From Nemertoderma westbladi (lineage: Eukaryota > Animalia > Xenacoelomorpha), in contig JAUCBJ010000577.1 in the NCBI GenBank assembly GCA_032718475.1, positions 1 through 64,000 of the forward strand: a stretch of 64,000 nt of DNA. The letters are read 5' to 3'. A program made the position numbers and the translations under genes. Under the pieces are notes generated by a model. That model saw only the letters and a list, made by a program, of their open reading frames with translations, did not search any database and had not been told where the DNA came from. Of this stretch, positions 3,535 to 47,900 are shown piece after piece; the stretch's first letter is position 1; the number at the start of each line of letters is the position of its first letter.

Positions 3535-3654
3535 TGGAGTTAGAGAAGAGTTTAGTCGTCCAAGCTTTGGACTGAGGGGGGTGGGATTGAGGGCGAGACG
3601 CCCTTCCCACACATAAAAAAAATAGAAAATAAAAATAAAATAATAGTACATAGT

Positions 3655-22395: not shown

Positions 22396-22502
22396 TAAAA
22401 TATACAAAGGTTTACTACAACTAGCAGTCAAGGACGTTACTTTCTTTTTTAATAGGGACAATTATGCTCAATTTGATGGTGTCGCTTTGGACTTTACGCT
22501 TG

Positions 22503-25536: not shown

Positions 25537-28500
25537 CCACCCCCCGTATAAGATGTGGAGCATCAGTTATTTTAAAATAGCATCTTGATTTTTCTTTATT
25601 AAAAGTAACAGTCTTTTTGGGTTTTTTTATATCACGTTTACTGTTTGTTAAAAAATGTTGAGCTAAATTAACAGCGTTGTCTAGCAAACGTGTACGAATT
25701 TTGAAATAATTACAATCGAATTTGGAAATTTGTAACTTGTTTACAAAATCAGTTCTATTGGTAGCAAAATATCTAACAGGTAAGGCGTTAGCTGGACAAA
25801 TATTTCCGTATATTTTTGTATTCTCGGGTAATATTAATCCAGGCCAGGGTGGATAGTTTTTACTTTTTCCTATTATGACGTCATCAGTTCGTACATCGGA
25901 ATTTCCATTAGATCTTTTGGATAGAATTGAAGTAGGTTTAGCTTTATCTTGTTCTCCTCGATTAGTTAGTAGTTTTTGTTTTACCTGAGTAATTCCAGTT
26001 GTGATTTCTTTTCTCTGTGATTCATTTATGACGAATGCAGGTTTTGTACGATCGATAGAAATTTTCTCATGGTATTTTTTCTTTAACACAGTGATAGTTT
26101 TATCGTCTCTGTCCAAAACTTCAAATGGACCAGAGTAACAGTCACTTAAAGTTGATTTCTTTCTGTCGTTTCGTATCCACACGTGAGTTGCTTTATGTAG
26201 TTCCTTAGGAATATATGTTGGTGCTGTGTGTTTGCGTTCTGGAGCAGCAAATGAGTTTATTGTTTCAAACAAATTGTCCATATAATTCGGTAAATATGCT
26301 TCAGTTTCATTCTTGGAAGAAGGAATTAGGAATTGTCCAGGTAGGTCAATGGGTCCGCCATAGACCATTTGGGATGGACTATAACCTTGGCAGTTCACTG
26401 ATGCGCGCAATCCTAAAAGGATTAATGGCATTGTCTCTGACCAGCTGCGATTTGTTGAAGCATGTGCTCTTAGAGCATTTTTCAATGTGCGATGGAATCT
26501 CTCCACGGCTGAATTTGACATCGGGTGGTAAGTTGTTGTTCGTTTGCGATTGATGCCTAATTGTCTCATTAGTTCTCCCCACACAGTGGACTCAAATTGA
26601 GTTCCTCGGTCGGAAATTAATTCTCTAGGGACTCCAAAACGACTAATCCACGCAGTAATTAGGGCGTTTGCTACTGTTTCTGTATCAATTTGCTTTACAG
26701 GAACTACTTCGGGCCAGCGTGTGAAGCGGTCAATGATAGTCACCAAGTGAGTAAAATCCTTTGAGGGAGGTAATGGCCCCACTAGGTCTATGTGAATGGT
26801 ATGGAATCGATCTGTTGTAGGTATTGTACCAATAGGAGATTTCGTATGTCGCACAATTTTGCATTGCTGACACCTAAGACATTGGCGGCACCATGTTCGT
26901 ATATCTTTACTCATACCTGGCCATACATGTTTCTCTGCAATGAGTTTGATTGTTGCCCGGTGCCCCAAATGTGCCAGATTATGATGTTTCTCAAATGTTG
27001 TGAAACGCATACTTGTTGGTAAATAAGGACGTAAAGTTGACTTTTCTTCATTACACCAAATGAAATTGTCACCCACAGGTATCTTCTTCAATGGTAGCGT
27101 TGTGTTCTTAAAGAACTCTTGCAGTGAAGTATCAGAGTTTTGGGCTTCGACCAGTGACTCATCACATGTAGTAGTTATGGTCAATAAAGATCTTGATAAC
27201 GCGTCAGCTACTATGTTGGATGAACCAGCAATGTGCTTTATAGTACAATTGAACTCAGATATAAATGAAATCCACCTTGTTTGCTGTGGTGTTGGGTTTT
27301 TCATTGTGAGCATGTCAATCAATGGTTTATGGTCCGTTTTAATCACAAAATCTGTACCGAGTAACCACGGGAAGTGTTTAAGTGATAGGTAAATGGATAA
27401 TAATTCTCGATCGAAAGTAGATTTTCTCGATTCATTGGAACTAAATTTCGCAGAAAAGAATCCTAAAGGTTGTTTGTTGTTGTCTATAATTTGATGAAGA
27501 ACTGAACCAGCTGCTACATTGGAAGCATCTGTTGTAATTTCGAGTTCCAATTTAATAGTCTTTGTGTTTGGAAATGCAAGAACCACACTATCTGTAATAG
27601 CTATTTTCAGTTTATTAAAAGCTTCCGTTTCATTGTCACTCCAATTTAATGTGTTATTGCTTTTGGATTTTCGATCTCGCGTCATGTCGGTTAAAGGAGC
27701 AGCGATTCCCGAGAAATTTGGAACAAATCGGTGATAGAATCCTGCCATGCCTAGCAGGCGTTTGAGTCCTTTAATGGAGGTGGGTTTTGGGTAATTAACA
27801 ATTGCCTCAACTTTCTCAGGTAGTGGTTTGATGCCTTCAGCTGAAATGTGGGCACCTACAAACTTTACACTGCTGCAAAAGAAAATACATTTTTCTTCTC
27901 GTAGTCGTAAACCAAATATATTTAAACGATGTAATATGGAGTCTAGATGTTGTAGATGTTCTATGGGATTTTTGCTAGCAACCAATATGTCATCTAGATA
28001 TACCCAAGCAAAAGCAATGTCTTGTAAAACTGTATCCATAAGACGTTGAAAAGTCTGAGAAGCATTTCTTAGTCCATACGGCATTCTCCGAAAAATATAC
28101 AAACCAAATGGGGTAATTACAGCAGCTTTATGTTGATCATCTTTTGCTATTGGTATTTGAGTGTAAGCAGATTGTAAATCTAATTTGGAAAATATTGTAG
28201 AACCATGTAGAGCACCTGGTATTTCGCTTAAATTCGGCATAGGATATCTATCCGGAATTGTCTGAGCATTTAAACCACGGTAATCACCGCAAGCGCGAAA
28301 AGGTGTTGTTTTCGAGTTTGGTTGTGGAACCATATGTAATGGTGATGCATATGGGGATTCACCACGGTAGCATATACCTTGGGATTCCCATTTAGCAAAT
28401 ACCTTCTTTGCCTCATCCAAACGTTCGCCAAAAAGTCGTCTGGCTTTAAAATGGGATGGATGTCCAGTAGTGAGAATATTATGTTCTATATCATGTTTAA

Positions 28501-29074
28501 TGGGTTGGAAAATATTTACGGGTTTAAATATGTCTGGGTATTTGTCCAAGAGGTCATTAACCTTACTGTTGAACTCTTGATTTTCTACTGTTATTCTTCG
28601 AATTGTTGGTGTTAATTGGATTTCAGTTTTATTAATTTGCTTCTCATTTGACTTGCGGTTGGTTGTATCTTTGTTTTGTGTTGGATCATTGCTGGAGAAT
28701 GTTATATCATTTAGAGGAATTAATCGATTGTTAGTGCAATCTACTAGAAGCTTGTGCTTTGCAAGAAAATCTGCCCCTAGTATTGGTTGAGGAATGTCTC
28801 CAATGTAAAATGTCCAGGAATAGAGTTTATTATTAACATTGGGTAAAGTAAATTGTAGTTTTTCTATACCAATGACGTTTATTTCAGTTTGGTTGGCCGC
28901 TTTTAATATAATGTTTGGAACTGGACGCATATCGGAAGTAGCATATTGTGTAGGCAGTACACTAACTTCACTACCACTATCCGCTAAAAATTCTTTTACA
29001 AGTCCAGTTGCGGTCACATATATAGCGTTGACTCCATCACCAGCCGCTCGAGTGGTGGAGTCTATCAGTTTCCC
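25532..29074 (-). CDS. pol: Gypsy Pol (protease, RT, RNase H, integrase, C-terminal PWWP-like domain), likely via -1 frameshift
   Basis: FLADSGS, YASPLHMV, YLDD, TDAS, HNLAH..CLRC, HIDLVGP, SDRGTQF, ERFHR, GPF; G GGA AAC slippery site at 29068-29074. Confidence 0.95.
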   Translation of the reverse strand, partial: GKLIDSTTRAAGDGVNAIYVTATGLVKEFLADSGSEVSVLPTQYATSDMRPVPNIILKAANQTEINVIGIEKLQFTLPNVNNKLYSWTFYIGDIPQPILGADFLAKHKLLVDCTNNRLIPLNDITFSSNDPTQNKDTTNRKSNEKQINKTEIQLTPTIRRITVENQEFNSKVNDLLDKYPDIFKPVNIFQPIKHDIEHNILTTGHPSHFKARRLFGERLDEAKKVFAKWESQGICYRGESPYASPLHMVPQPNSKTTPFRACGDYRGLNAQTIPDRYPMPNLSEIPGALHGSTIFSKLDLQSAYTQIPIAKDDQHKAAVITPFGLYIFRRMPYGLRNASQTFQRLMDTVLQDIAFAWVYLDDILVASKNPIEHLQHLDSILHRLNIFGLRLREEKCIFFCSSVKFVGAHISAEGIKPLPEKVEAIVNYPKPTSIKGLKRLLGMAGFYHRFVPNFSGIAAPLTDMTRDRKSKSNNTLNWSDNETEAFNKLKIAITDSVVLAFPNTKTIKLELEITTDASNVAAGSVLHQIIDNNKQPLGFFSAKFSSNESRKSTFDRELLSIYLSLKHFPWLLGTDFVIKTDHKPLIDMLTMKNPTPQQTRWISFISEFNCTIKHIAGSSNIVADALSRSLLTITTTCDESLVEAQNSDTSLQEFFKNTTLPLKKIPVGDNFIWCNEEKSTLRPYLPTSMRFTTFEKHHNLAHLGHRATIKLIAEKHVWPGMSKDIRTWCRQCLRCQQCKIVRHTKSPIGTIPTTDRFHTIHIDLVGPLPPSKDFTHLVTIIDRFTRWPEVVPVKQIDTETVANALITAWISRFGVPRELISDRGTQFESTVWGELMRQLGINRKRTTTYHPMSNSAVERFHRTLKNALRAHASTNRSWSETMPLILLGLRASVNCQGYSPSQMVYGGPIDLPGQFLIPSSKNETEAYLPNYMDNLFETINSFAAPERKHTAPTYIPKELHKATHVWIRNDRKKSTLSDCYSGPFEVLDRDDKTITVLKKKYHEKISIDRTKPAFVINESQRKEITTGITQVKQKLLTNRGEQDKAKPTSILSKRSNGNSDVRTDDVIIGKSKNYPPWPGLILPENTKIYGNICPANALPVRYFATNRTDFVNKLQISKFDCNYFKIRTRLLDNAVNLAQHFLTNSKRDIKKPKKTVTFNKEKSRCYFKITDAPHLIRGVV

Positions 29075-30219
29075 GGTGTCTTTCTCCCCCCAGCAATCTC
29101 TGGGTCCCACTGGCAGTTTTCTCCCATACACTTAGTAGCATTCTTACCGAATTTCCAATGGTACCAACAAAATTTTCCATCAGGGTTGAAGGAACGTGAT
29201 TTGGAACGAGTTTGGCGGTAATCTCTTGGAGCTGATGGAGATCTCGAGGCGGAATATCTTTCTCGACTGTTCCCTGGATTACGACTCAATCCTCGTGAGC
29301 GATCGTCTTGAGTGGATAACCGGTTGATGGCATGGGTTAACTTGGTCATTTGCTGTGTGATATTACTGCACCAGAGTTCCATGGGGTATCCATCGGCTGC
29401 AGTGGCGCCTCCAGTTGTAGTTGTGTTGTTTGGATTAGGCCTAAACGTAGAGGTGTGGTTGATTGGAACTGTAACACTGTTTACATTGACTGGGCTGGTA
29501 TATATTTGTTCAACCATACGATCCGCAATTTCAGCGAGTTTTTCGGTTGAGATTCCATCAATTGATATTAGCGCTAAACGGACAGGTTCGGGTAAAATCT
29601 CCAAAAATCGTAGTTTAACTATGTTTTCGTTATGCGGAGCTAAACGTAACAGTTGTCTCAGGGCGACGGAGGGTTTGCGGTCGCCAAGGGTTTGATCCTG
29701 GAGCAGCTTCTTTAGTCGTCGTTCCTCACTGTCGTCAAAAAATTTTATTACACTGGATTTTATAGTTTCAAAATTATCGGAAACATGTACGCCGCTGTCG
29801 AAGATTACATTTGTTGGTAGGACTCTTAGCAGACTGTTTTTCATAACTTCTTCGGATGAGTTAGAGAGGATTTGTTCGATTTGATCAAACCAGATCCTTG
29901 AATCTTTTTCGTAGAAGTTCGGTAATTTCACCGTAATTGTAGTCGGATTCGGGATTAACGATGGGTTGCCACCAACGTGGGAAGGAGGTTTAGTTAGAGT
30001 CTGTTGGACGTGATTGAAAGCTAATTGAATAACGGATGGAAGTTCGCTATTAAGAGCGTCGAGGAGGTCCTGTTTAGTGGATGGCATTCCAGCAAAGTTG
30101 GGATCGTCTTGATGGATTAATTGTAACATGGCTTCTAATATAGCCTTGGGTTGGTTGTGTAAGTCTGGCATTATGATTATACGGTACCGGTCAGCCGGTG
30201 CTGATCTTCCAATTATCAC
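29065..30219 (-). CDS. gag: Gypsy Gag
   Basis: VKLPNFY..WF.QIE, LGDRKPS, CWYHWKFG.NA.KC..C motif; overlaps pol frame; true ATG probably near 30171. Confidence 0.92.
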   Translation of the reverse strand: MIIGRSAPADRYRIIIMPDLHNQPKAILEAMLQLIHQDDPNFAGMPSTKQDLLDALNSELPSVIQLAFNHVQQTLTKPPSHVGGNPSLIPNPTTITVKLPNFYEKDSRIWFDQIEQILSNSSEEVMKNSLLRVLPTNVIFDSGVHVSDNFETIKSSVIKFFDDSEERRLKKLLQDQTLGDRKPSVALRQLLRLAPHNENIVKLRFLEILPEPVRLALISIDGISTEKLAEIADRMVEQIYTSPVNVNSVTVPINHTSTFRPNPNNTTTTGGATAADGYPMELWCSNITQQMTKLTHAINRLSTQDDRSRGLSRNPGNSRERYSASRSPSAPRDYRQTRSKSRSFNPDGKFCWYHWKFGKNATKCMGENCQWDPEIAGGRKTPGN

Positions 30220-30281
30220 TTCGGTACACAGTTTTGTAGTAAGTTTTTTTTTATCTCAGTAGTTCGACGTCTGGGTCACCA

Positions 30282-31892: not shown

Positions 31893-32991
31893 ATTCTATG
31901 TTTGTTTAGGGGTGTATTATAGAAAGTAGGGTTCCAGAATTTTTCAAATTATCAAGTACCTCAGATACTAGCAGACAGCTGATACAAATTTATCCAACCG
32001 TTTGTTTCTCGGAATACAAGAAATAGTAGGCCTATATATTTGTAGGCCTATTATTCTCAGACTCAGTGACAATAACAGGTACATACGGAAGGGTATTAAG
32101 GCGAACGCAATCTCATGTGCAAACGAATGATATTAATCTCAAGTTTTATTTTTCTATGTAACCAATAAAATCGAATCATCATAATCGCTTAGTACATATT
32201 TGCCATCATCAATATGCATTTATTTACTTACTATTGGTCCATCCCTTCAAATTCACTTTATACTATATACCTGTATGAACTTGACGATACTTCATAAACC
32301 TACAGAATTAATTATAATAGCGCATTATTATCTAAACATCGCACGTCTATCTTAGTTAGGGACACAACAGTGCGAAATTTCGTCGGATTTCAAACCTCTC
32401 CGCCAAACACTGGTTGGTGGTTCAAGGCTGTATCCACTCGGACACAGCGGACACTGGATGTGCCATGGCGCATGTTGGGTTTAAAACACCCCACATTATA
32501 TCAGATTGAAAGCAGAGCAGAGCTGAAAGCTGAAATAACTCAGACAATGTTTTGCGTTATCCCTGTCTTAATGGCAGAAGATAACCTTACATTTCTTTCA
32601 ATTTACAGAATTAGGCACTTCACGGCTGTACATCTTCATGTTCGGTGACAAGATTGGCCAATAAATCACGGATTTTAATGTTGCAATGTGATCAGACCCT
32701 CGTTTTACAAATTAGCTCATGAACTGTTGCTCAAGTTACAGTGTGAAGACATTTAGATGACGTCCCGAAACCCAGAAGACTTTTTAAAACCAATCCTCAC
32801 ATTCTATTGGCTGAGCTGGGAGCCTGGATCATGCACCCGTGATTTGGGCGTGTCCAAGAGCACCTTTCCTAGGGGTTTCAATTGATTTCATGATAACTTT
32901 AGCTTCTGCTTCAACATGGCAGATGAAATTGATTTTCCAATAAACTATTATCCTTCTAGTCACTACAGATGAATATCTTAAGAACGATAGT

Positions 32992-34599
32992 TGTTGCCGT
33001 TATCCCTACACCAGGGGGAAAAACGCCGATGCTGGAGACGTGACTTAACAGACCACCGAGCCCCGGCCAGTCACCGGATATTGATTGTGGGGAGGGAATA
33101 TTTTCTGAGATGCAAGTTTGCGGTTGATAAAAAGCTGCATTAGTTGGATATACTCTTTAATGTAACTTCCTATAGTTGAAACCTGTTCAACATCATTGAA
33201 ACTTGATTAAGAATAATTTTGGGCTTCCCCAAATCAATATACACCAAATATTCACAATAATTATACACGATAATATAAATCCCTACAGTATATTATTTAA
33301 TAACCCACTGTTTGCTCAGAATTTTAGCCTACCTAATGTTCCCCAGATTTTCCCTCGGTCCCAGTCTTAGTGCCGTAGTGTCGGTGTCGGTCGACCCTGT
33401 CGCGTGTCCGTTCCACCCCTCACGAACCCCGAAGGGAACGATCATCGAGAACCAGCACGGCTTGGCTAAGGGTCGGTCCAGTCGGTAGACTCTGTCGCGT
33501 ATCCGTACCACCCCTCTCGAACCCCGAAGGGTTCGGTCATCGAGAACCAGTACGGCTTGGCTAGGAGTCTGTCGTGTCGGTGGACCCGTTCGCGTGTCCG
33601 TTCCACCCCTCACGAACCCCGAAGGGTTCGATCATCGAGAACCAGAACGGCTTGGCTAGGGGTCCGTCGGTTCATCACAGAAACCCAACCACCTAGGCTT
33701 TCCGAGTCCGTTTCAGGCTCGTAGTCGCTTCGGCAGCCGAGAAACTGCTCCGAACAGTCGGTAGGCCAGTAGAGTCTAGTCGAGTCTAGTCCTTTGTCTT
33801 TCGACCCCATCGCGTGTCCGTTCCACCCCTCACGAACCCCGAAGGGTTCGATCATCGAGAACCAGTACGGCTTGGCTAAGGGGTCTGTCGTCGGTTCCCG
33901 TCGCAAATCCCAGTACAAGCAGTCAGCGTTCCGAGTTCTTTTCAGTCTCGTAGTAGCTGCCGTTGACCAGAGACCGCTAAGGGCAGTTCTCGTCAAACCC
34001 GTCCTGTGGCCAGCCCTTTCGCATGTCCGTCCCACCCCTCACGAACCCCGAAGGGATCGGTCATCGAGAACCAGTACGGCTTAGGTCAGGGGGCAGTCGT
34101 TAGTTGGCCACCCGTTCGCGTGTCCGCTCCACCCCTCACGAACCCCGGGGTTCGATCATCGAGAACCAGAACGGCTTGGCTACTAAGGGGCCGTCGGTGC
34201 CCGTCGCAAATCCCTGACACAAGCAGTCAGCGGTCCGAGTTCTTTTCAGTCTCGTAATGGCTGCTGTTGGCCAGGGACCGCTAAGGGCAGTCCTTGTCCT
34301 TTAGGCCTGGCGCATTACCAAATCCACCCCTACAGGCAGCAGGAAGTTGGCCAGGGCCTAATAGTACTCAGGCTAACCTGAATACTGCTTGCATTTTCCA
34401 TCCCCCCTGGCCCTTATAACTATGAAATTATTCCCGTACCCTGTAAGTTGCCCCAAAGTTCGCCCATAAATCGGCCCCAGTTTATTGAATGTGCCCAAAA
34501 CCCATGGTCCCGCACCCAGTAGTAATATCGGAATAATCAATTTTAATAAAATACAAAAATATTCAACTCGCGTTATGGAAAGTTGAAATACCGCGAACA
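32992..34599 (-). repeat. 3' LTR of BEL element 2 (~1.6 kb), six internal hairpin repeats
   Basis: Direct repeat of 43015-44474; PPT adjacent; left boundary less certain. Confidence 0.88.
33390..34262 (-). ncRNA. Array of predicted structured RNA elements within the LTR
   Basis: Six ~75-95-nt units with CGAACCC-UUCG-GGGUUCG and covarying stems, plus three CGAG..GAAA..CUCG hairpins. Confidence 0.6.
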
Positions 34600-34764
34600 G
34601 TCCCCCCCAATGACCTTCGTGAAGTCTGTCGGTCGATTGAGTTTGCGTAGGTCATTCCCAATATAAAAAACCCAAATTTAATATTGCATAGTTTTTAATT
34701 AATTTGGCCTAGAGTTTGTATAAAAATAAATGTTCGATAAATGTTCCTGGAATATCCCAATCCA

Positions 34765-37365
34765 CTATTTCTTTTTCTGGTACGCCTTTCGTCTCTTCGC
34801 CCGTCGACTCTCATCGATCGCTATGGCTGGTAGAGGAGCGTCAACATCCATTGTGAGTAACGCTTCGGCTTGTCTCCTGGCGGCTCTTCCTTTCGAAGGC
34901 ATCGGGATCATGTCGGTTCGTCTTTCCAACTCGGAGTTGCGTGCCTCTAGGAACCATTCTCCGTCACCGAACTCCTCTTTATACGAGTATAATCGTCTAA
35001 TGACTTCGAATGGGCCGAATAATCCAGCGCTCAGTAGCAGATCCACGTAATGGAAAGGTAGCGTGGCCGACGTGTGGAGGCGTTCCGGGAAGGAGAAATA
35101 TCCGCACGCCATCTCCTGCGCGATATTCCGAGCGTTTCTCCGAAACTTGGTCTTTAAGTGGCTGTTTGCGTATGTCTCAAACATGACCATATTGCCCATA
35201 GCGGTTACGTCTTTGGTAGGACATTTGATATAGCAGCGGGGGCTAGCGGAATGTCCACGGAAACCGCACGTGGTGCAGAGGTTATAAAGGATCGGACAGA
35301 CCGAAACGTCGTGGCCCGATATCGCGCAGTATGGGCAATAGAGTATCCCGAGGAGCTGGAGGCAAGAATCGGTAACCCGATTCCTTCTGCCGCGTGGGCA
35401 CTGCTCCGAGCCGCAGTCGCCGCATACCTCCAACTGCGTTTCTCGACCGGGGAATATCGGAATCGGGACGCCGACGTAGTATTCGAGTCGTCGGTCGCTC
35501 TTCGGAATATTCTCGGTGGTCGGTAGCCCGCGGAATGCTAGGCTTTTGCGTAGTATGTTCTCGCTCCGATAACCCTCTTTGTGTCCCGCTGGTCTCAACT
35601 CGGATGACCGTTTCTGGCGGTGGATCCATTCAGTTTGCTCGGCGTACCAACGGGTTAGTCGCATAGGGTCCTGAGGAACGGCGGGTGTAGTAGCCACCGC
35701 TGGTCGGCGAAGAGGTGCCGGGGTTTTCGACGGAGGGATACCGAGGAGATCGTCGGGTGTCGGCGCATCGCTGGGGCCCTCCTCGACCAGTATCGCTGAG
35801 CGGGTCCGTTGGTGGCTGGTACTCGGAATCTCCGACGACCAATCTTCGCCGCCCGGGAAAGGATACGGGGATAACCGTTGGCATATGTCGCCGAAGTCGC
35901 TCAATGCAGCTGTAGTGGCTACCTCTCTCGCGGGGCTACCGGAGCCGCGTGGGGTGTAGACGCCTGCTCTCTTCATCGGTTCGGCCGAGGCAACCCGTTT
36001 GGCGGCCGGTCCGTACGCGGCCTCCGGCTCGAGTTGTCGCTTCGGGGTGGAGAGTAGAACACCCTCGTTTAGCCATATCTCTTCCCCTTCCGAGGAGATC
36101 AGAGGCTCCTCCGCACCGAGAAGTTCGGTAATCGTAGGGATGTCGTAAGGTCCGCTCTCGTCCCAGGAATCGATAACGGCGGGCGTTTTTGATTCTCCCG
36201 GTGTAATGTTCTCGACCGCTTTAAACGCATGGTTTATAACCTCGTTCCAGTCGTAGTCGACGAAGGAAAGGGGGGCCGCCGTAATAAGGTTATCGAGAGT
36301 TTTACAGATAAACTTAGCGACGGTGTAGCACTCCATAACGACGTAAACGTAGTTCCGTCGATCAGGATTCTCCCACCTTTGGTGTATCGTCCACTTCCGA
36401 TCAACGTCCTTCCATCGACCCTCTCGCTCGCTCTTTATTTCCAATCCCGGGTATCCACCGTATATTTTATTATAGTCCCGGAATTTCTGGGGTTTGAAGT
36501 CGATACCGCCGTTTAGCACAGCGAGGTAGCCGATTCCGGATTTCGTCGGTCTCACTTCTTGGAATCCTCGCATGAATTCGGCGAATCTTAACCAGGCTAG
36601 CAGCGTTTGAGTGTCGATGCAATGGCTAAGTGCGTTGAGGTCGTTTCGTCGGTTTCTTCCTGCGGGAGCGTTCGCGTAGTCGTTCCGGACGTCCGCCTTG
36701 ATATCCGACCCGATTTTAATGACGTCGAAGTCGAAGAGGATCTTTTGGATTTCCGGAGGCAGCAACCAGATCGCTCCGGCTGCCTGCACTTCCTGTCTGG
36801 GTGTCGGGAATATTCGGCACACCAGTACCAAACGATCCAGGGTTCCGAGGACGACGACTAAGGATCGACCATATTCTTTCGCCCCGTACTTTTCCTGGTA
36901 GTCGTCGCGGTTCTGGATAATCGATACGCGTTCCTCTCGAAGCGTCGCCGTACACTCCGACAGGTTTCCCCAGTGGGCGAGGTACGTACTCTTGTCGTCG
37001 ACGAAACTTTGACATCTCGCCAACGTAATCGCTTTCGATGTGGGCGTCGCATTTCCCTCGTTGTCGTAGATCAAACATCGGGATCTGTAGACGCTCTGCC
37101 GGAACGTTTCCCAAAATGACGAATCGTCCCCTCCGGTTGCCTTTGCGTTCCGAGTTCTTTTCAGTCTCGTACTAGCATCGGCTAACCGGAGGGCTCGTAG
37201 ATTCTTAGAATCCGGTCCCTCTCGCCCGGTGAATTTAATGACTCGCACGTTCTCATTTAGCAGGGTGCTCCAATTTGTATCAAAGTCAGGGGATCCGGGT
37301 TGCGAATATTCCAGTAGATCTATCGTGTTACGTAATTCGCCGATAATTTGGCGAACTGGGTCCAT
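34765..37365 (-). CDS. Accessory protein (866 aa): DEDDy/WRN-like 3'-5' exonuclease-like domain, disordered linker, zinc-knuckle module
   Basis: LIYDNEG (ExoI DxE), LPPEIQKILFDFDVIKIGSDIKAD (ExoII), CIDTQ, YVVME (ExoIII, D replaced by E); CPYC-x4-H-x4-C and CTTC-x4-H-x5-C; uninterrupted ATG-TAG ORF. Confidence 0.8.
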   Translation of the reverse strand: MDPVRQIIGELRNTIDLLEYSQPGSPDFDTNWSTLLNENVRVIKFTGREGPDSKNLRALRLADASTRLKRTRNAKATGGDDSSFWETFRQSVYRSRCLIYDNEGNATPTSKAITLARCQSFVDDKSTYLAHWGNLSECTATLREERVSIIQNRDDYQEKYGAKEYGRSLVVVLGTLDRLVLVCRIFPTPRQEVQAAGAIWLLPPEIQKILFDFDVIKIGSDIKADVRNDYANAPAGRNRRNDLNALSHCIDTQTLLAWLRFAEFMRGFQEVRPTKSGIGYLAVLNGGIDFKPQKFRDYNKIYGGYPGLEIKSEREGRWKDVDRKWTIHQRWENPDRRNYVYVVMECYTVAKFICKTLDNLITAAPLSFVDYDWNEVINHAFKAVENITPGESKTPAVIDSWDESGPYDIPTITELLGAEEPLISSEGEEIWLNEGVLLSTPKRQLEPEAAYGPAAKRVASAEPMKRAGVYTPRGSGSPAREVATTAALSDFGDICQRLSPYPFPGGEDWSSEIPSTSHQRTRSAILVEEGPSDAPTPDDLLGIPPSKTPAPLRRPAVATTPAVPQDPMRLTRWYAEQTEWIHRQKRSSELRPAGHKEGYRSENILRKSLAFRGLPTTENIPKSDRRLEYYVGVPIPIFPGRETQLEVCGDCGSEQCPRGRRNRVTDSCLQLLGILYCPYCAISGHDVSVCPILYNLCTTCGFRGHSASPRCYIKCPTKDVTAMGNMVMFETYANSHLKTKFRRNARNIAQEMACGYFSFPERLHTSATLPFHYVDLLLSAGLFGPFEVIRRLYSYKEEFGDGEWFLEARNSELERRTDMIPMPSKGRAARRQAEALLTMDVDAPLPAIAIDESRRAKRRKAYQKKK

Positions 37366-37904
37366 ATTTACGATTATATCCGTTACAAATTAGTTCAGTT
37401 AATTATAAGTCCAGAAAGTCTGAAACTATAGCGATAGCAGAATAATTCAGTTTTTTATTTAATTCAGTTTATTAAATAACATTGCTATATAGGCATCTAT
37501 CATCTTATTGCTAATACATTCAGCATTTACAGTTACTATAGCTATACATGATATCCAACCAGTTTTTTATGACTTTTTTGTCCTTTTTTTTCCAATTCTT
37601 TTCTTTGACCTTTTTTATACCTTTTTTTTGTCTTTTTTCATTTCATTATTATTTCATCTCATTTCATTTATTTCCACATATATTTCAACATTTATTTCCA
37701 CCATTTATTTCACATTTATTTATTTATTTCCACATCATCATTGGGTTTATAGCCCCCCGGCTATCATCATTGTTATAAGCGCAGCACCAGGGTGCGCATC
37801 ATTTCATTTTCATCAGTATACGCGTCATCATTCAGGTTTATAGTAGAGTTGTCTGATCCTTTTCATCGTTTCCAACTATATTCAATCATTTTCTTTGGTT
37901 AATC

Positions 37905-38340
37905 TTTGTCGTGGAAGGGGTGTTACGCGACAATCTGGGATCTACAGCTGGACTCGTTACACCGCCTACACCCCAAACTGCGCACGTAACGGACAATGAA
38001 GACGCTAGGAGTGAAGTCACGTGGATGCACCATGGACCCACCAGAATAACACTCCCAACAACATAAAGCTCAGTCGACGAAGTCATGTGGGATGGGGTTA
38101 CGCAACATTCTGGGATCTACAGCTGGACTCGTTACACCGCCTATGCCCCAAAATCCACGTAACGGTCCCACCAGAATAACGCGACTGAGAAACATAAAAC
38201 CCTCTATCGTCGAAGTCATGTGGATGCACCATGGACCCACCAGAATAACGGGATAGAGGGGGTGTTGCGCGGCAATCCGGGATCTACAGCTGGACTCGTT
38301 ACACCGCCTACGCCCCGAACTGCGCACGCAACGGACAACA
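37905..38340. repeat. Three ~170-bp composite repeats upstream of the accessory ORF
   Basis: GGGATCTACAGCTGGACTCGTTACACCGCCTA x3; GTGGATGCACCATGGACCCACCAGAATAAC x2 plus a partial copy. Confidence 0.85.
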
Positions 38341-38611
38341 TAACATACTGCAATGAATACAATGAATTCCACTTCAAATCTTTTCCATTTCCAATAATCC
38401 AATATCGTAGGTCCTGATGACCAAAATCAGGGTAAACTAAACATAAACGACCCTGCGTCAGTCGAAACATCTGCAGGGTGACGCTGGACTCCACATAACA
38501 CACGAGGAAACACAAATACCATTGCGTGGTTACAGTTGGTTTAAAGGGGGTCCATAATTCGTTGTCGATAAATCACAGTTTTATAAGAGTTTGTCAACAT
38601 GATGAGAAGGG

Positions 38612-39140
38612 TTACATGGGTTTGTAATTGTCACCAATGTCCACAGCAGGATCTTGAGTAGGGAACTTATCACCTCTTGTAGAATCACCACTGTCATTGC
38701 CTTCAAGAAGGCACAGCTTCTGGATAGGGCGTTGGTAGTGGCCCTTTGCCGTTCGTATCGTCACAGTCCTCGCAAGTCCGTCTTTGCTTGGGTGTATGGT
38801 CACGACCCGCGCCACAGGCCAGTGAACGCGGTCTTTGAGATCTTCTTTAACTAGTACCATGTCGCCAACTGCGACATTCCGGTAGGTGTTGTTCCATTTC
38901 CTCCTGGTCCGGAGGGTTATGAGGTACTCCTGGGCCCAAATTCTCCACCAATGCGCTGCCAACGCTTGGGCCTTTTTCCCGTTTGTATGTTTCGCGATCT
39001 CGCTGGGATCCGGGAACATGGTCTCTGGGAGAATGTGGGTTTTGGGTCTCCCCAGTAGGTGGTTAGGAGTGAGGGACTCAACTGAGGCGTTCGCCATCCG
39101 GGTATTACGGCAGATTAGTCCGTGCTCTCCCGTTAATGGT
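38612..39140 (-). pseudogene. Integrase C-terminal (DUF5641-like) remnant
   Basis: LTPNHLLG, WWRIWAQEYL..L..R.KW, GDMVLVKE, WPVARV, DGLARTV, RPIQKLCLL; out of frame with gag-protease. Confidence 0.85.
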
Positions 39141-42100
39141 GTCAATGTTATCAACGTCATTATTATCATCAACAATCTTATTAGCCACCCAAATCATGGG
39201 TACGCGCCAATGTCCGTCTTTGAACGTGGCCTGATCAAAAATGTTGGTACAATATTGATCTTCCTCGGACGGATTCTCGTCCTTCTCGGCAAACTCTCGG
39301 GTCTCCACATTAAAGCATCCGGTCATCTCCCGCTGGGTTCTCTCGGTTTCGAGAAATAAATCCTCATCGAGGTCTGTAGCTGAGCAATATCCCACGGAGG
39401 TTACATTCTCTTTAATCTGACATTTAGGAAGGTAGGTATAGGTGTCCGTAGTTTCCTCCTTAATGCCGCAGAGTGTCCATCCCATTATTGTTCGTTCAGC
39501 ATAAAATCCATCATCCTGGTTTATAGATCGAGCGATATCTCCGGTGGGGATGTGTAGTTCCGGTGTATCAAGTCCGATCAGTAGGGTGATACGGTTCACG
39601 TCCAACTGCGGACACCTCAGGTCTACATCGTCTCGGTCCAATTGTATGAGGGGGGCGTACTCGGCTGATTGTCGGAACCGCACCCGGAGGTCTGTGTGTA
39701 CCAAGGCGTTCTTGATGGTTAACTTAGCCGTTTCGTAGCCCTTCATCACTCCTTCCATCTGGAGTTGTACCTCCCCGGACTCTACTTCTCTGTTATCGGT
39801 GATGGTTTGTATGGGCCGTTTACAAGGTTCATATTCTAGGCCGAGTTGCTCGAGGAAGTCCCGGTCGATGATGGTTCCGTCAGACCCGTTATCGAGGAAC
39901 GCGAGTGTCGTTAAAGATTTGCCGACTCCTTGGATCCTTACTGGGATTACCTTTGCGAAAACCATGTAGCGGCGATTTATAAGATTAATCGTGGCCGAAA
40001 TATTGGTTACTTGTGGTGTATCGGTGGAGATTTTAAACGGGTTGGTTTCTCTCCGTTGGGTTGTCCGGGTTCCTTTGAAGATGTGGTTTGTTTCTCCTCT
40101 TCGCCTGGCTTCGATCCGAAAGGGGAGGGTAGTAAAATCGAAGTTCGCAGGGATGTGGAGGAGCGTGTGATGGCGTTGGTCGTTACAGACAGTACAGCAT
40201 GATCTTTGGTCGCACTCCCGAACATAGTGACCTGTTCCAAGACACCGGAAGCATCCTCGGTGTTTCATTATCGCCTCGAAGCGTGGGACGAGTTCGGCGA
40301 ACTGAAACTTTCTGCAGAATTCCACTTTGTGTTTCTCCCCACAGAAGAGACAGAGCAGGGAATTTGTGACGCCTTCCCTTTCGGGTGCCCAACTCGCGAG
40401 ATAACATGCCCATTCCTCGGCGGATGTCGGTTCCTCGTAGTCTTCGTCGTCGGAATCCTCGGCCATGGTAATGGCCATCGTACTTATCGGTGGGGGGCGG
40501 AATCTCGGTTTCGGAGGGGTTATCTTACTCCTGGAGTTGCTCTCTATTCCGTCCAACTTTGCGAGACTTTGTTTTGAAAACATCGAGTCATTCATGGCTT
40601 CGGAGATATCGTCCAGGAATGCCGACATTTCAAGGAAGCTAGGATCTCGATCTGGATGTCTGCGCCGGAGATCTACACATTTATAAGCCCACTTACTTTG
40701 TAGCCATCCGGGGAACTTCTTGGCGATCTGTCGGAGGTTTAGAATGTTGTTCACCTGGTCCTCCTTATTTAAGGGTTTCAGAGTATAATAGGCATCTTTC
40801 ATAGAGTCGGAGAATTCCTGTATGTTCTGTGGGTCCCCTAGTGATCCCGCGTCCTGTATCAGTCTCTCTAGAGTTTTATTAATTATAGTTCCGGTATTTC
40901 CGTATCTTTTGTCTAGAGTTTTCCATGCGTCATAGTATGCCTCATGAGAACCTCCTTCAAAACATGCAACAATTCTGCGTGGTTTGTCACCCAGGTATTG
41001 CGATAAATATACCAATTTCTGTGCGTCGGCTATGTCCGTTGATCCAATCTGCGCAAAGAACCGTTTCTTGAATCTGAGGTAATCGACGGGATCTCCTTCG
41101 AAGGTGCGAATCTCCATCTTCGGCATGGCAAGGCGGTTCTCCAACGCCCGGATGATGCTGACGTCATCTGAACTGGAGTGACTCGGAGGGTTATAGTTAT
41201 TGGCACTCACTCCCATTCTTGATGGATCAATAATAGGCGGAGTTTTAATAATGACGCGGCTGCGAGTTTGTGGTGTTGATGTAAATGGGTTGTTTGATCG
41301 GGGAGTGGCGTCCCGTTCCGAGTCCTTTTCAGGCTCGTACTTGGGTACACTCGCTGTCGTGGTGTTGGATGGGAAATAGGGTTCCTCATTCTTTAGCGTA
41401 GCCGGTGGGGGATGAAACACCGGAGCTTGTGCCGATAGCGTAGACTGTTTGGTAGGCGGGATCTCGAGTTTCGGAGGTTTCGTCACTGTTGGTGTAAATG
41501 ACTTTTCTAACTCCGGTATCGGAATTGGTTCATATTCCTGATCTATATCCCTTTCCCAGTCCTCGTAGAGTTGAATATCTCGTTCTATAAGTGCGGCCTC
41601 GTATTCCGCCAGTTTCGCAATATCTGCATTCTTTTTGTGAGTGAGAATCGCTTGGGCCTCGGCGTGTTGTTTACGCATTTCTGCTTCCCATTTACGTTGT
41701 TCGATCTCTTGTTTGGCCTCTCGTTCATGTTGTTCGATCTCTCGTTTGGCCTCTCGTTCACGTTGTTCGATCTCTCGTTTGGCCTCTTGTTCACGTTGTT
41801 CGATCTCTCGTTTGGCCTCTTGTTCACGTTGTTCGATCTCTCGTTGGGCCTCTTGTTCACGTTGTTCGATCTCCTGTCTGACCTCCTGTCTGCGTTGTTC
41901 GACCCGTCGTTCGACCTCTTGTTCGGCCTCTCGCTTTTGTGTTTCGGCGGCTAATACATCTTGCTCGGCTTGCAGTTGAATATACTCATCTTCCATCCGA
42001 GCTTTGAGGGCTAATGCCTTCCGTTCTCGCAGTTGGTCTCGGAGTGGCTGACCCCCTTGAGAGCTATGCGCTGAGCCGGATCTCTCGCTCCTAGCGCTGG

Positions 42101-42575
42101 AGTGCTGATTTCTAGCGGACCCCGTTCTTTTTCGATGTACTGCCGTCCTGATGCTGGAGGATCGTACTGATTCCGCGTCCGTTCTTTCAGCCCTCTGGTA
42201 GTACTGTTCCTCATAGCCTCTCACAAGGCTGAGGGTCCTCTGGTGTTGTTTGCGGAACCCATCTAGATGTACAACGTGTTCTTCCAACTTGGGGTAGTTT
42301 TCCTGATCGGTGGAGGGAACGAGATCTTGGTACGCCTGTATCATTCTTTCGTACCGCTGTAGGATATTTCGGATACTTTGAAGCTGAGTTTGTACCTCAT
42401 TGAGGGGGGTTTTGACTCCCTTGAGTTGTTTCTCCATCCGTTGATACGCTCGGGTTACTCCGCCTTTAAGGGCCCCTAACCGACGGGTCATGTTCTTGAC
42501 ATTTGGTACCTCGTCGGCTTCCGAGTCTGTGTGGTGATCCATCTCGTCGGTATCGGATACGTTATTTGTTGTCAT
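39105..42575 (-). CDS. gag: BEL/Pao Gag-protease (1156 aa), ending where RT should start
   Basis: MPKMEIRTFEGDP..F (DUF1759-like), three Cys/His knuckles ending HHTLLH, AFLDNGS protease, TIMGWTL; 11-aa coiled-coil repeats. Confidence 0.92.
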   Translation of the reverse strand: MTTNNVSDTDEMDHHTDSEADEVPNVKNMTRRLGALKGGVTRAYQRMEKQLKGVKTPLNEVQTQLQSIRNILQRYERMIQAYQDLVPSTDQENYPKLEEHVVHLDGFRKQHQRTLSLVRGYEEQYYQRAERTDAESVRSSSIRTAVHRKRTGSARNQHSSARSERSGSAHSSQGGQPLRDQLRERKALALKARMEDEYIQLQAEQDVLAAETQKREAEQEVERRVEQRRQEVRQEIEQREQEAQREIEQREQEAKREIEQREQEAKREIEQREREAKREIEQHEREAKQEIEQRKWEAEMRKQHAEAQAILTHKKNADIAKLAEYEAALIERDIQLYEDWERDIDQEYEPIPIPELEKSFTPTVTKPPKLEIPPTKQSTLSAQAPVFHPPPATLKNEEPYFPSNTTTASVPKYEPEKDSERDATPRSNNPFTSTPQTRSRVIIKTPPIIDPSRMGVSANNYNPPSHSSSDDVSIIRALENRLAMPKMEIRTFEGDPVDYLRFKKRFFAQIGSTDIADAQKLVYLSQYLGDKPRRIVACFEGGSHEAYYDAWKTLDKRYGNTGTIINKTLERLIQDAGSLGDPQNIQEFSDSMKDAYYTLKPLNKEDQVNNILNLRQIAKKFPGWLQSKWAYKCVDLRRRHPDRDPSFLEMSAFLDDISEAMNDSMFSKQSLAKLDGIESNSRSKITPPKPRFRPPPISTMAITMAEDSDDEDYEEPTSAEEWACYLASWAPEREGVTNSLLCLFCGEKHKVEFCRKFQFAELVPRFEAIMKHRGCFRCLGTGHYVRECDQRSCCTVCNDQRHHTLLHIPANFDFTTLPFRIEARRRGETNHIFKGTRTTQRRETNPFKISTDTPQVTNISATINLINRRYMVFAKVIPVRIQGVGKSLTTLAFLDNGSDGTIIDRDFLEQLGLEYEPCKRPIQTITDNREVESGEVQLQMEGVMKGYETAKLTIKNALVHTDLRVRFRQSAEYAPLIQLDRDDVDLRCPQLDVNRITLLIGLDTPELHIPTGDIARSINQDDGFYAERTIMGWTLCGIKEETTDTYTYLPKCQIKENVTSVGYCSATDLDEDLFLETERTQREMTGCFNVETREFAEKDENPSEEDQYCTNIFDQATFKDGHWRVPMIWVANKIVDDNNDVDNIDTINGRARTNLP

Positions 42576-42763
42576 TGTAACGCCTCGTCGATGGCTAGAT
42601 ACGCGATGTCGTAAAACAGTTCCTCGTAGGTATTGTACTCAGCTTGGACCACCCGAACAGTAATCCTGAATCGTCCAACGTTCGTTCCTTGTACCTCAAC
42701 TTCGACGTGCCAGATTCCTGGCTCAACTTGAATTATATCAATGGGTGTGATCGATACTTCCAT
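42572..42763 (-). CDS. Putative 63-aa upstream ORF overlapping the gag start (ATGA)
   Basis: ATG-initiated, protein-like composition; its TGA overlaps the gag ATG. Confidence 0.45.
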   Translation of the reverse strand: MEVSITPIDIIQVEPGIWHVEVEVQGTNVGRFRITVRVVQAEYNTYEELFYDIAYLAIDEALQ

Positions 42764-43014
42764 TCCCTGTTAACAACTCTCCAAATATGTGATCTGCCGA
42801 CTACGAGTTGGTTAGATCGAGTTTGTTGCTTAATTAAACCACGACTTTGTCTCAACTCAAATACCAGAGTTTCCTCGTAGTGGGTGCTGGCAAGCACGTA
42901 GAGAGTTTTTGAAGAGTATTGAAGGATTCTCAACTTCCACCAGTTGAAGTTGACCGTAATTATCCTTAATTTTGACACCCTGTCAAAATTAACCGCATGA
43001 ATTATTCTTAATTT

Positions 43015-44474
43015 TGTTGCCGTTATCCCAACACCAGGGGGGAAAAACGCTGATGCTGGAGACGTGACTTTACAGACCACTGAGTCCCGGCCAGTCACCG
43101 GATATTGATTTTGGAGAAGGAATGATTTCTGAGATGCAGGGTTGCGGTTGAGAAAAAGCTGCATTAGTTGGATATACTCTTTAATGTAACTGAACTCTGT
43201 TGAACCTTGTCAACAATATTGAACCCTGATTAAGAATAATTTTGGGCTTCCCCAAATCAATATACACCAAATATTCACAATAATTATACACGATAATATA
43301 AATCCCTACGGTATATTATTTAATAACCCACTGTTCGCTCAGAATTTTAGCCTACCTAATGTTCCCCAGATTTTCCCTCGGTCCCAGTCTTAGTGCCGTA
43401 GTGTCGGTGTCGGTCGACCCTGTCGCGTGTCTGTTCCACCCCTCACGAACCCCGAAGGGAACGATCATCGAGAACCAGCACGGCTTGGCTAAGGGTCGGT
43501 CCAGTCGGTAGACTCTGTCGCGTATCCGTACCACCGTACCGTCGGTTCATCACAGAAACCCAACCACCTAGGCTTTCCGAGTCCGTTTCAGGCTCGTAGT
43601 TGCTTCGGCAGCCGAGAAACTGCTCCGAACAGTCGGTAGGCCAGTAGAGTCTAGTCGAGTCTAGTCCTTTGTCTTTCGACCCCATCGCATGTCCGTTCCA
43701 CCTCTCACAAACCCCGAAGGGAACGATCATCGAGAACCAGTACGGCTTGGCTAAGGGGTCTGTCGTCGGTTCCCGTCGCAAATCCCAGTACAAGCAGTCA
43801 GCGTTCCGAGTTCTTTTCAGTCTCGTAGTAGCTGCCGTTGACCAGAGACCGCTAAGGGCAGTTCTCGTCAAACCCGTCCTGTGGCCAGCCCTTTCGCATG
43901 TCCGTCCCACCCCTCACAAACCCCGAAGGGATCGGTCATCGAGAACCAGTACGGCTTAGGTCAGGGGGCAGTCGTTAGTTGACCACCCGTTCGCGTGTCC
44001 GCTCCACCCCTCACGAACCCCGGGGTTCGATCATCGAGAACCAGAACGGCTTGGCTACTAAGGGGCCGTCGGTGCCCGTCGCAAATCCCTGACACAAGCA
44101 GTCAGCGGTCCGAGTTCTTTTCAGTCTCGTAATGGCTGCTGTTGGCCAGGGACCGCTAAGGGCAGTCCTTGTCCTTTAGGCCTGGCGCATTACCAAATCC
44201 ACCCCTACAGGCAGCAGGAAGTTGGCTAGGGCCTAATAGTACTCAGGCTAACCTGAATACTGCTTGCATTTTCCATCCCCCCTGGCCCTTATAACTATGA
44301 AATTATTCCCGTACCCTGTAAGTTGCCCCAAAGTTCGCCCATAAATCGCCCCCAGTTTATTGAATGTGCCCAAAACCCATGGTCCCGCACCCAGTAGTAA
44401 TATCGGAATAATCAATTTTAATAAAATACAAAAATATTCAACTCGCGTTATGGAAAGTTGAAATACCGCGAACA
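43015..44474 (-). repeat. 5' LTR of BEL element 2 (~1.46 kb; deletion across repeat units 2-3)
   Basis: Direct repeat of 32992-34599 with a deletion near 43533. Confidence 0.88.
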
Positions 44475-44973
44475 AGTCTCGCGCAGCTGCATAACCATGC
44501 AACATTTGAACGATCATATCTCAGCTATTTCAACGAAATTCAGATTGGGTTACATATTTGGAGTCCTTGCATTTCCAGCTTTCTAACAGTACCAACAAAT
44601 CATTATACTTTGAAGAATAACTGCGGTGTAACTGGTGTAATGTCGCTGGAGACACCTTTTTTTAAACGCTTGTTGCTAAAGATTGAAAGCAAAAATAAAA
44701 ATCACCCAGTCAGTAGTGGTCGGGAGGTGAAACTATCTCTGTTTCAAATTTCATGCAATCTCGTAAGATTTGTAAAATTTGGGGAAGGAGGGGAGGGGAG
44801 GGGGGGTGGGGCCATGTACCTGAATAACGACACTATTCCAGTACATGGTGTGTATATATGACACGGGTAACATTTATTTGATTGTATATCTCTAATTTAA
44901 CTCACGCCGTATCCGTGTGCGACTAGTTATTTTTTATTTAATTATTTTACTTTTAATTTTTTATATATTTCAG

Positions 44974-47900
44974 TGAGAGCATTCAGTGGATAATATCAAA
45001 GAATAACCTTACATTATTAACGTATCCTAAACTAATAATCGACGTGCCACCGAAACGAGCCCCCGAAGAAGATAATGACAATACAACGGTTGTCCCAGAA
45101 GATAATGGGATTCAATTTGGTGAGTCTGAAACCTGATTATTTTATGAAACTAATTAATTATCACAATTGATTGTCATTTTTTTTATTTTAATTTTTTTCA
45201 ATAAATTCATGCCAACAGCTATCTAGTTTCCATTCCTTGTATAATGGAGTTACCCGAACTCCTGTCTTCGTAACATTAACATTCCATTATTATACTTGAC
45301 TAATATTGGTAATGCAGTTCTTGATCACCCCTTTTAGAATCCACCCTTATATTAGTCCGCATTCGCACTCAAGTCAAAACCAAACATCATGAAGTTGACA
45401 CATTGAAACACTGAAGATGAAATTACAATATTCTATAATAATGATATTTTTTTTAATTTATTATACTTTTGGCTTTTGAATGTTGTGTTTTGACTTGATT
45501 ATCGGAAGCCGGCCTAACATTTAATCCTAAATTGAAAACCAACACTTTGAACGCAACAATAATTAATTTCGAAAATAATCATGTAAAAATTGAATTATCT
45601 TGTTCTCATTTATGTTCTCATATTGAGATACACAGTGTTATTTCAAATAGAAAAAAGCTTTATAATGTTTATTATTAGTTAATATATTTAGTTAATAATT
45701 ATTGTTAATGTAGTTTTTGATGTACTAATGATCCTTACCGGTACCGGTACATTACGTCGCATTACCCCGACCCGAATTTGAACTCAAAGTAATTTTGTAT
45801 TTTTAGGATCCGTTTCATACGAATTTCAAGTTGTGGCTGATATTAGTGTTTCTTGTATGATAGACCCAGGAAACGTAAAGAGCCATCTGGCGGAAGGTTT
45901 ACGCATTGATATTGGGTACATTCAAAACGTGGACGTTAAGGTTTGACATGCTACACAATAATAAATGTACTCGACTGAATAATATTACCTATATTATTAC
46001 TATGCATTATAATATAAAATCAACTGCCCAAAATTTGCTGAGTTGTTTAATGTCTTGTAAATCTGGTTATGTTTTGGCGAAATGAGTGGTGGAACGTTTT
46101 ATTTATATTAAAGCATATTTCTGTCAGATTCCTATGAATGAGAGATTTGTGGTGGAAGTGTTGTACGCCTGCGGATTTCTCAAATTATCCTATAAATATA
46201 ATATATCATTCTATTTTGTTGTTATTTTTAGGTCAAGTTTCTGGCCAGCCGCGAAAGTCTCATAACTGTAGCGTTCACTCTAACTGCACCGGAAGTTGAG
46301 TTAGAAGAACTGGCTTTGAGGACTCACGAAAGCATTAAAAATCAGCAGCTCGAACTTCCTTGCCAGTTGGTGTCTGCACTAGGTTAGCGCACAAGAACTG
46401 CCTTGCCAGTTGGTGTCTGCACTAGGTTAGCGCACTGGAACTGCCTTACCAGTTGGTGTCTGCACTAGGTTAGCGCACAAGAACTGCCTTGCCAGTTGGT
46501 GTCTGCACTAGGTTAGCGCACTGGAACTGCCTTGCCAGTTGGTGTCTGCACTAGGTTAGCGCACTCGAACTGCCTTACCAGTTGGTGTCTGCACTAGGTT
46601 AGCGCACAAGAACTGCCTTGCCAGTTGGTGTCTGCACTAGGTTAGCGCACTGGAACTGCCTTGCCAGTTGGTGTCTGCACTAGGTTAGCGCACTCGAACT
46701 GCCTTACCAGTTGGTGTCTGCACTAGGTTAGCGCACAAGAACTGCCTTGCCAGTTGGTGTCTGCACTAGGTTAGCGCACTGGAACTGCCTTGCCAGTTGG
46801 TGTCTGCACTAGGTTAGCGCACTCGAACTGCCTTGCCAGTTGGTGTCTGCACTAGGTTAGTGCACAAGAACTGCCTTACCAGTTGGTGTCTGCACTAGGT
46901 TAGCGCACTCGAACTGCCTTGCCAGTTGGTGTCTGCACTAGGTTAGTGCACAAGAACTGCCTTACCAGTTGGTGTCTGCACTAGGTTAGCGCACTGGAAC
47001 TGCCTTGCCAGTTGGTGTCTGCACTAGGTTAGCGCACTCGAACTGCCTTGCCAGTTGGTGTCTGCACTAGGTTAGTGCACAAGAACTGCCTTACCAGTTG
47101 GTGTCTGCACTAGGTTAGCGCACTCGAACTGCCTTGCCAGTTGGTGTCTGCACTAGGTTAGCGCACTGGAACTGCCTTGCCAGTTGGTGTCTGCACTAGG
47201 TTAGTGCACAAGAACTGCCTTACCAGTTGGTGTCTGCACTAGGTTAGCGCACTCGAACTGCCTTGCCAGTTGGTGTCTGCACTAGGTTAGCGCACTCGAA
47301 CTGCCTTGCCTGTTGGTGTCTGAACTAGGTTAGCGCACTGGAACTGCCTTGCCAGTTGGTGTCTACACTAGGTTAGCGCACTCGAACTGCCTTGCCAGTT
47401 GGTGTCTGCACTAGGTTAGTGCACAAGAACTGCCTTACCAGTTGGTGTCTGCACTAGGTTAGCGCACTCGAACTGCCTTGCCAGTTGGTGTCTGCACTAG
47501 GTTAGCGCACTGGAACTGCCTTGCCAGTTGGTGTCTGCACTAGGTTAGCGCACTGGAACTGCCTTGCCAGTTGGTGTCTGCACTAGGTTAGCGCACTGGA
47601 ACTGCCTTGCCAGTTGTTGTCTGCACTAGGTTAGTGCACAAGAACTGCCTTACCAGTTGGTGTCTGCACTAGGTTAGCGCACTCGAACTGCCTTGCCAGT
47701 TGGTGTCTGCACTAGGTTAGCGCACTGGAACTGCCTTGCCAGTTGGTGTCTGCACTAGGTTAGTGCACATGAACTGCCTTACCAGTTGGTGTCTGCACTA
47801 GGTTAGCGCACTCGAACTGCCTTGCCAGTTGGTGTCTGCACTAGGTTAGCGCACTGGAACTGCCTTGCCAGTTGGTGTCTGCACTAGGTTAGCGCACTGG

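Follow-up and report, generated by a model that had tools for sequence, protein, structure and literature searches.

Why should a single 32-nt hairpin recur in the long terminal repeats (LTRs), the gag gene and an accessory open reading frame (ORF) of one retrotransposon? We addressed this question in a 64,000-nt window of Nemertoderma westbladi DNA (GCA_032718475.1, contig JAUCBJ010000577.1, positions 1 to 64,000). The best explanation, which we hold tentatively and at slightly less than an even chance, is that the hairpin (hairpin B) is an RNA signal under selection, whose repeats would serve as docking sites for a protein that the element itself encodes, with the accessory protein as the first candidate and Gag as the second.

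The element harbouring the hairpin occupies 44474..32992 on the minus strand and is a BEL/Pao LTR retrotransposon. It combines a DUF1759 Gag, a CCHC knuckle, an aspartyl protease, a DUF5641 integrase tail and TG..CA LTRs, with the knuckle and the protease scoring slightly below curated cut-offs. Its parts are as follows.

43015..44474, minus strand: 5' LTR, TG..CA, with two copies fewer than the 3' LTR of the repeated unit A described below
32992..34599, minus strand: 3' LTR, TG..CA
39105..42578, minus strand: gag-protease ORF with coiled-coil repeats, DUF1759, CCHC knuckle and aspartyl protease, stopping upstream of reverse transcriptase (RT)
38612..39193, minus strand: integrase C-terminal tail (DUF5641), from a domain search
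34765..37365, minus strand: accessory ORF of 866 aa, with a lineage-specific N-terminus, a 3'-5' exonuclease-like fold, Cys/His knuckles and a basic C-terminal tail
37420..37425, minus strand: candidate splice acceptor, 55 nt upstream of the accessory ATG, by motif inspection only

By domain search, this copy holds no RT, RNase H or integrase core, the domains that would make it autonomous. BEL/Pao elements have target-site duplications of 5 bp; none was found here, and the sequences flanking the two LTRs differ. The U5 ends (32992-33215 versus 43015-43240) show 196 matches and 26 mismatches, whereas the remainder of the LTRs is ~98% alike. Because of these diverged ends and the missing 5-bp duplication, the copy is probably a recombinant. 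In same-organism sequencing runs, depth falls and loose ends appear near 39075-39378, which suggests that most family copies differ from this one in that interval, and the summed contig depth of ~20,000-30,000 in two runs, which is not a copy number, points to an abundant family. Immediately past the 5' LTR (42958-43014) there is no tRNA-like primer site; the leader contains a perfect 9-bp inverted repeat at about 42967-42989, and ~170-nt tandem repeats (37912-38342) separate the integrase tail from the accessory ORF. Elsewhere in the window are a Ty3/gypsy element with a PWWP domain behind its integrase (25532-30255, minus strand; E 7.6e-07), tandem 17-bp and 43-bp arrays at 17600-21750 and from 46220 onward, and an intronless Otopetrin ORF of 547 codons (54848-56491, plus strand).

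Hairpin B occurs in exactly eight copies in the 64 kb, three in each LTR, one in gag and one in the accessory ORF.

37145..37176, minus strand: accessory-ORF copy, canonical bulged G, b-type apex
41313..41344, minus strand: gag copy within a Pro/Thr-rich linker upstream of DUF1759, with an a-type apex, CC/GG closing pairs and the canonical bulged G
33697..33728, minus strand: 3' LTR copy a, C at the bulge
33926..33957, minus strand: 3' LTR copy b, C at the bulge
34230..34261, minus strand: 3' LTR copy c, U at the bulge, A-C pair
43572..43603, minus strand: 5' LTR copy a, from the covariance model
43801..43832, minus strand: 5' LTR copy b, from the covariance model
44105..44136, minus strand: 5' LTR copy c, from the covariance model

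The count of eight, put forward in the initial annotation, was reproduced across the 64 kb by fuzzy search and by a covariance model run with filters off, and every copy lies on the minus strand, which is the sense strand of the element. The model scores the eight copies at 57-66 bits and the next best match in the 64 kb at 10.5 bits. Both sequence matches reported earlier were also recovered: 37145-37171 is identical to LTR positions 33926-33952 (27/27), and gag 41316-41339 matches LTR positions 33700-33723 at 23/24. The same is true of the different reading frames, in which the motif is translated as YEPEKDSE in gag and as TRLKRTR in the accessory ORF.

The hairpin is built on two closing pairs, which are GC/GC except in gag, where they are CC/GG, followed by a 5x4 internal loop whose sequence in 8/8 copies is N-A-x-U-A / G-A-(A/C)-N between Watson-Crick pairs. 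Above the loop is a 4-bp helix, CGAG/CUCG, unchanged in every copy and capped by an 11-nt apex of two types, a and b, both formed around an invariant CUGAAA. The two apex types differ by a broken pair and not by a pair swap. Five loop bases are constant across copies and four are variable, the variable positions being the lower sheared pair (U-C, C-C, A-C, A-A or G-A), the tHH pair (A-A or A-C) and the bulge.

The earlier proposal that this is a loop E or sarcin-ricin (S/R) motif is supported at the level of sequence. By the account available in PMC8450098, the S/R motif is a 5x4 loop in which the sheared pair varies naturally among AG, AA, UC, CC, AC, GG and UA, and the tHH pair is AA or AC. 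All loop variants in the element copies fall at positions that vary in these natural motifs, and the positions that are invariant there, U-A (tWH) and A-G (tHS), are present. The 5x4 descriptor was derived from the element's own copies; a model made from six copies of distinct sequence falls into register with the sarcin-ricin loop of E. coli 23S helix 95 (H95; NC_000913), scoring 11.9 bits (E 0.0025 in 221 nt) in what was a targeted test. On this basis, a predicted S/R-compatible loop is supported. The canonical bulged G is found in 2/8 copies, which are the two ORF copies and which share it despite their differing apex types; the LTR copies have C (four copies, including both a and b of the 3' LTR) or U (two copies). 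Non-G bulges are described as rare in natural S/R motifs, where they lack the base triple, and an A or C bulge as ~5.5 kcal/mol less stable in model duplexes (PMC8450098). The G was either gained by both ORF copies or lost concertedly across the LTR array.

Likeness to rRNA is limited to the loop, so that convergence on the motif suffices, and capture of an rRNA sequence was rejected as the origin of the hairpin. A ribozyme reading (hammerhead or hairpin, by consensus) was dropped with no Rfam match: an Rfam 15 scan of 32000-46000 assigned no family to hairpin B or unit A and returned two chance matches (E 1.3 and 1.8). Exact motif patterns gave 0 matches in viral and metagenome collections.

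The initial annotation took the use of different frames to mean that conservation is at the nucleotide level. The nucleotide identity across two frames stands, but the frames alone cannot tell selection from capture. Synonymous shuffling sets these matches against chance. The longest exact match between the accessory ORF and the LTR is 27 nt, a length reached by 0/300 shuffles (maximum 17), and the accessory copy equals LTR copy b throughout 37145-37176, bulge base excepted. For gag, the longest exact match (13) is within chance (24/300 shuffles) and the best 24-mer (23/24) is beyond it (maximum 21 in 40 shuffles). When the hairpin is masked, nothing beyond an 18/24 LTR match remains in either ORF. 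Hairpin B is the sole LTR sequence present in the ORFs beyond chance, and each of its two ORF copies carries a different apex type; unit A occupies more of the LTR and is never found in an ORF.

Each copy is predicted to fold on a lower stem, and the flanks that form these stems mostly do not align. The stem beneath the accessory copy is long.

37128..37195, minus strand: long lower stem beneath the accessory copy, the best fold of the accessory ORF versus synonymous recoding (rank 1/211 windows, z -5.1)

In windows centred on the hairpin, comparison of the fold with synonymous recodings gave 1/1000 for the accessory ORF and 9/1000 for gag, and in an even window scan the gag hairpin window came to 2/285, without a clear margin over other gag windows. 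Under an energy model that carries no S/R bonus, the probability of the gag lower stem is 0.64 with 30-nt flanks and ~0.01 with flanks of at least 60 nt, and that of LTR copy a goes down to 0.15 at 190 nt. What had been called a covarying closing stem comes down to one G-C to C-G swap in gag, the remainder being just a looser outer pair, and covariation support for hairpin B is thin (2/9 pairs; 3/500 shuffles; +1 slid control, 0.119 versus 0.148; a set of 6 related rows). In the accessory lower stem, the 5' arm resembles LTR copy a (5/2582 segments score as well), five consecutive bases of the 3' arm are unlike LTR copy a with pairing kept, and the core is Watson-Crick throughout, a pattern for which fold-back copying could be an alternative source.

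Fold-back copying forms part of an account in which the ORF copies are neutral captures, brought by RT template switching or gene conversion into tolerant protein, with the accessory stem perfected afterwards in this way and only the LTR copies mattering, if any. Template-switch correction of a quasi-palindrome yields perfect stems, which the all-Watson-Crick core of the accessory stem fits; the accessory apex is that of LTR copy b, as expected from recent conversion, the gag stem is weak in its wider context, and the protein around both ORF copies (the gag linker and the accessory N-terminal stretch) is under little constraint. We nevertheless judge neutral capture to be unlikely, if a serious competitor. 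Hairpin B alone was taken, twice, with edges at the motif; the bulge is G in both ORF copies and C in LTR copies a and b, a difference that avoidance of stop codons does not explain; and the closing pairs in gag are unlike those of every LTR copy, with pairing kept.

The presence of the ORF hairpins across the family is supported by sequencing depth, the bins that contain the ORF copies (281 nt; contigs only) showing no depth dip in 3/3 same-organism runs among the four runs compared. Among the variants listed from this run comparison (40 of 809, alongside 12 of 44 indels and 15 of 18 joints), one lies inside a hairpin, at 41326, and it is uninformative because LTR copy a already breaks that position. 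As far as seen, the motif appears to be lineage-specific, because it is absent both from a second BEL family in the window and from 10/10 distant loci. Neither hairpin B nor unit A was found in the second family, though a knuckle domain is common to both families, or in any of the ten distant loci, of which only L004 showed an LTR pair; in four distant BEL elements, no LTR piece is repeated within ORFs. The 3' part of the second family spans 1-6900 (plus strand), with RT, RNase H and integrase. Its accessory ORF (4436-5644) has the knuckle domain without an exonuclease match, and the spacer between pol and this ORF (3680-4060) contains small hairpin repeats in an array.

Within the LTR, 6/8 hairpin copies have the predicted TATA box on one side and the predicted poly(A) signal on the other. 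Motif matches in the 3' LTR place the TATA at 34418, a 10-bp hairpin at the predicted transcription start (~34386) and a donor-like site at 33334, just upstream of an ATTAAA at 33301, while the three hairpin copies of the LTR are contained in a GC-rich kilobase that begins ~30 nt past the TATA motif and extends as far as the donor-like site. These positions would probably define an R region of ~1.1 kb. Of the two roles suggested initially, a protein-binding signal is plausible, whereas a dedicated packaging signal has weak support; we marked the latter down because copies in the R region would fall in spliced and unspliced RNA alike. The same part of the LTR contains a second kind of repeat, unit A.

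33395..34189, minus strand: six kink-turn-like unit A copies of ~80 nt each in the 3' LTR, starting at 33395, 33490, 33585, 33805, 34014 and 34111
43418..44064, minus strand: four copies of unit A in the 5' LTR, with starts at 43418, 43680, 43889 and 43986

A kink turn is defined by a 3-nt bulge, the pairs G1b-A1n and A2b-G2n, and C-G at -1, as set out in the available text of PMC5579392. The pattern of tandem G-A/A-G with C-G is present in 10/10 unit A copies by alignment and in 7/10 by a strict descriptor, and 8/10 copies are capped by C(UUCG)G. The energy model prefers a competing register of unit A without the kink. The base of the unit is closed by a U-A/G-A-type 3x3 loop that is also seen at other LTR stems.

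The two kinds of repeat might together recruit host RNA-binding proteins by mimicry of rRNA and snoRNA modules, with uL18/RPL5 or TFIIIA as candidates for loop E and the L7Ae/15.5K family for the kink turns, so that the RNA would be stabilised, exported or localised without an element-encoded partner. Besides the S/R loop match and the kink-turn pattern common to all ten unit A copies, this possibility draws on the precedents of the viroid PSTVd, whose loop E binds RPL5 (PMC6633198), and of CTE-type host export elements in retroviruses (PMC12789967), as described in the available portions of these sources. We consider it improbable, though worth keeping in view: the invariant helix and the apex of hairpin B are family-specific and exceed the needs of a generic host module, and unit A has the non-kinked register that the energy model favours.

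That the repeat instead acts as DNA, as a composite site for transcription factors or chromatin, and folds only incidentally, is very unlikely: enhancers are often multiplied in LTRs, as this repeat is, and the accessory stem also folds on the opposite strand, and nearly as well (z -3.5), but all eight copies share one orientation, those in the LTRs come after the predicted TATA box, the special tetraloops (GAAA and C(UUCG)G) and the S/R loop are legible on the sense strand only, and the flanks preserve pairing and not sequence.

What, then, might read the hairpin? The N-terminal half of the accessory protein looks like a 3'-5' exonuclease fold: Atlas assigns it to a 3'-5' exonuclease cluster (0.92), and a family profile gives weak matches to Egalitarian (E 0.021) and EXD2 (E 0.22). 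Pfam returned no exonuclease match in the accessory ORF, and the two structure models of the domain are of too low a confidence to use (pLDDT 37.5 and 35.7). The ExoI D-x-E, present in 5/5 aligned relatives, falls in a gap in the protein of this element, in which a D-x-E ~55 residues upstream is out of register. With the ExoI block missing, the exonuclease fold is likely dead. Absence of the block seems to be family-wide, because two contigs of run X4, one of them ~82% alike, cross the site of the gap with nearly equal length. The protein also carries Cys/His knuckles and a basic tail, and DEDD derivatives that are inactive, for example Maelstrom and EXD1, are described as keeping RNA binding (PMC5408684).

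Seven relatives of the accessory protein were found, none of them among viral or prokaryote contigs, and the N-terminal stretch that bears the hairpin aligns with at most one. A shared-word protein search gave 0 matches for the accessory domain and alignment A1, and one match for gag. In four of ten metagenome loci (L003, L004, L005 and L007) a knuckle accessory ORF lies downstream of BEL pol, and its exonuclease-like part is alignable in L003 and L007. Judged from these loci, the accessory gene extends more widely among BEL elements and lies outside Pfam coverage.

If hairpin B is a docking site for an element-encoded protein, as we prefer, the S/R-type loop beneath the invariant four-pair helix would be the place of contact, repeated through the element RNA. 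The LTR copies would lie within the long R region, and a hairpin cluster would therefore be present at both ends of every transcript. The two bulged-G copies in the ORFs would be the most stable forms; unspliced RNA would contain both, and spliced accessory mRNA one only. The accessory protein, with its first catalytic block missing and its Cys/His knuckles and basic tail, may bind RNA rather than cut it. The resulting RNP could channel the RNA of the element into export, localisation or assembly with Gag, much as Rev or Rex response elements do, and the Gag knuckle would be the second candidate partner. A more specific version of this scheme, in which a dead exonuclease-knuckle protein reads weak copies, set in a 1-kb R region alongside the kink-turn array, together with strong copies in gag and in its own gene, so counting the splicing state and regulating itself in a Rev/Rex-like manner, seems to us rather unlikely.

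Cis-acting RNA signals of BEL/Pao elements are scarcely described, and the role of exonuclease-like extra ORFs in LTR retrotransposons is under discussion (PMC5408684). The 32-nt module, spread across the LTRs and two ORFs, offers a small testable target for the accessory protein and for Gag. Should our reading be true, it would describe a retroelement RNA assembled from rRNA-type 3D modules (S/R loop, kink turn, UUCG and GNRA). A search covering mostly non-subscription literature returned no title that deals with arrays of S/R loops or kink turns in LTR retrotransposons.

Hairpin B has in common with the S/R motif of 23S helix 95 the 5x4 loop, the invariant U-A and A-G, the A-A/A-C pair and the natural variants of the lower pair. 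It is unlike helix 95 in its cap, a 4-bp helix with an 11-nt apex as opposed to one pair and a GNRA loop, in the C or U bulge of 6/8 copies, and in its host, a retrotransposon RNA. The MusD MTE and the MPMV CTE are likewise structured cis-acting RNAs of LTR retroelements (PMC3362945, PMC12789967). As these sources present them, they are single, lie outside the R region and act through host export (shown for the CTE). No sequence likeness to them was found here, in line with the lack of an Rfam match; the 'loop E' of PMC3362945 belongs to a reference on enterovirus RNA.

Signals bound by Egalitarian, including the I-factor ILS, are also stem-loops bulged on the 3' strand, present in several copies per transcript and read by a protein with an exonuclease-homology domain (PMC13186709). 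By that account they consist of two helices of at least 6 bp with U-A pairs at set sites, whereas the GC-rich helix of hairpin B is 4 bp long and adjoins an S/R loop, and an Egl/BicD localisation signal was rejected on helix length, with neither the helices of at least 6 bp nor the two U-A sites present. The DEDDy ORF3 of bdelloid LTR retrotransposons and Terminons is, like the accessory ORF, an additional exonuclease-like ORF that lies past pol and ahead of the 3' LTR. There the DEDDy is intact and the catalytic residues are kept, whereas here the ExoI block is likely missing and the host is BEL/Pao; the available part of that account mentions no RNA motif (PMC5408684).

Likeness to Rev/Rex-type systems lies here in splice-site-like motifs and a basic tail, both read from sequence, and the export function is a proposed one. 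Among such systems, RxRE and RcRE are located in the LTR. The Rev, Rex, Rem and Rec response elements are likewise multi-stem RNAs in or near the LTR, accompanied by an accessory ORF with a basic motif, which in the present element probably originates from a spliced mRNA (PMC12789967). Unlike those elements, the RNA described here would use one short module, repeated and spread into two ORFs, and its candidate partner would be an 866-aa exonuclease-fold knuckle protein in place of a small helical ARM protein.
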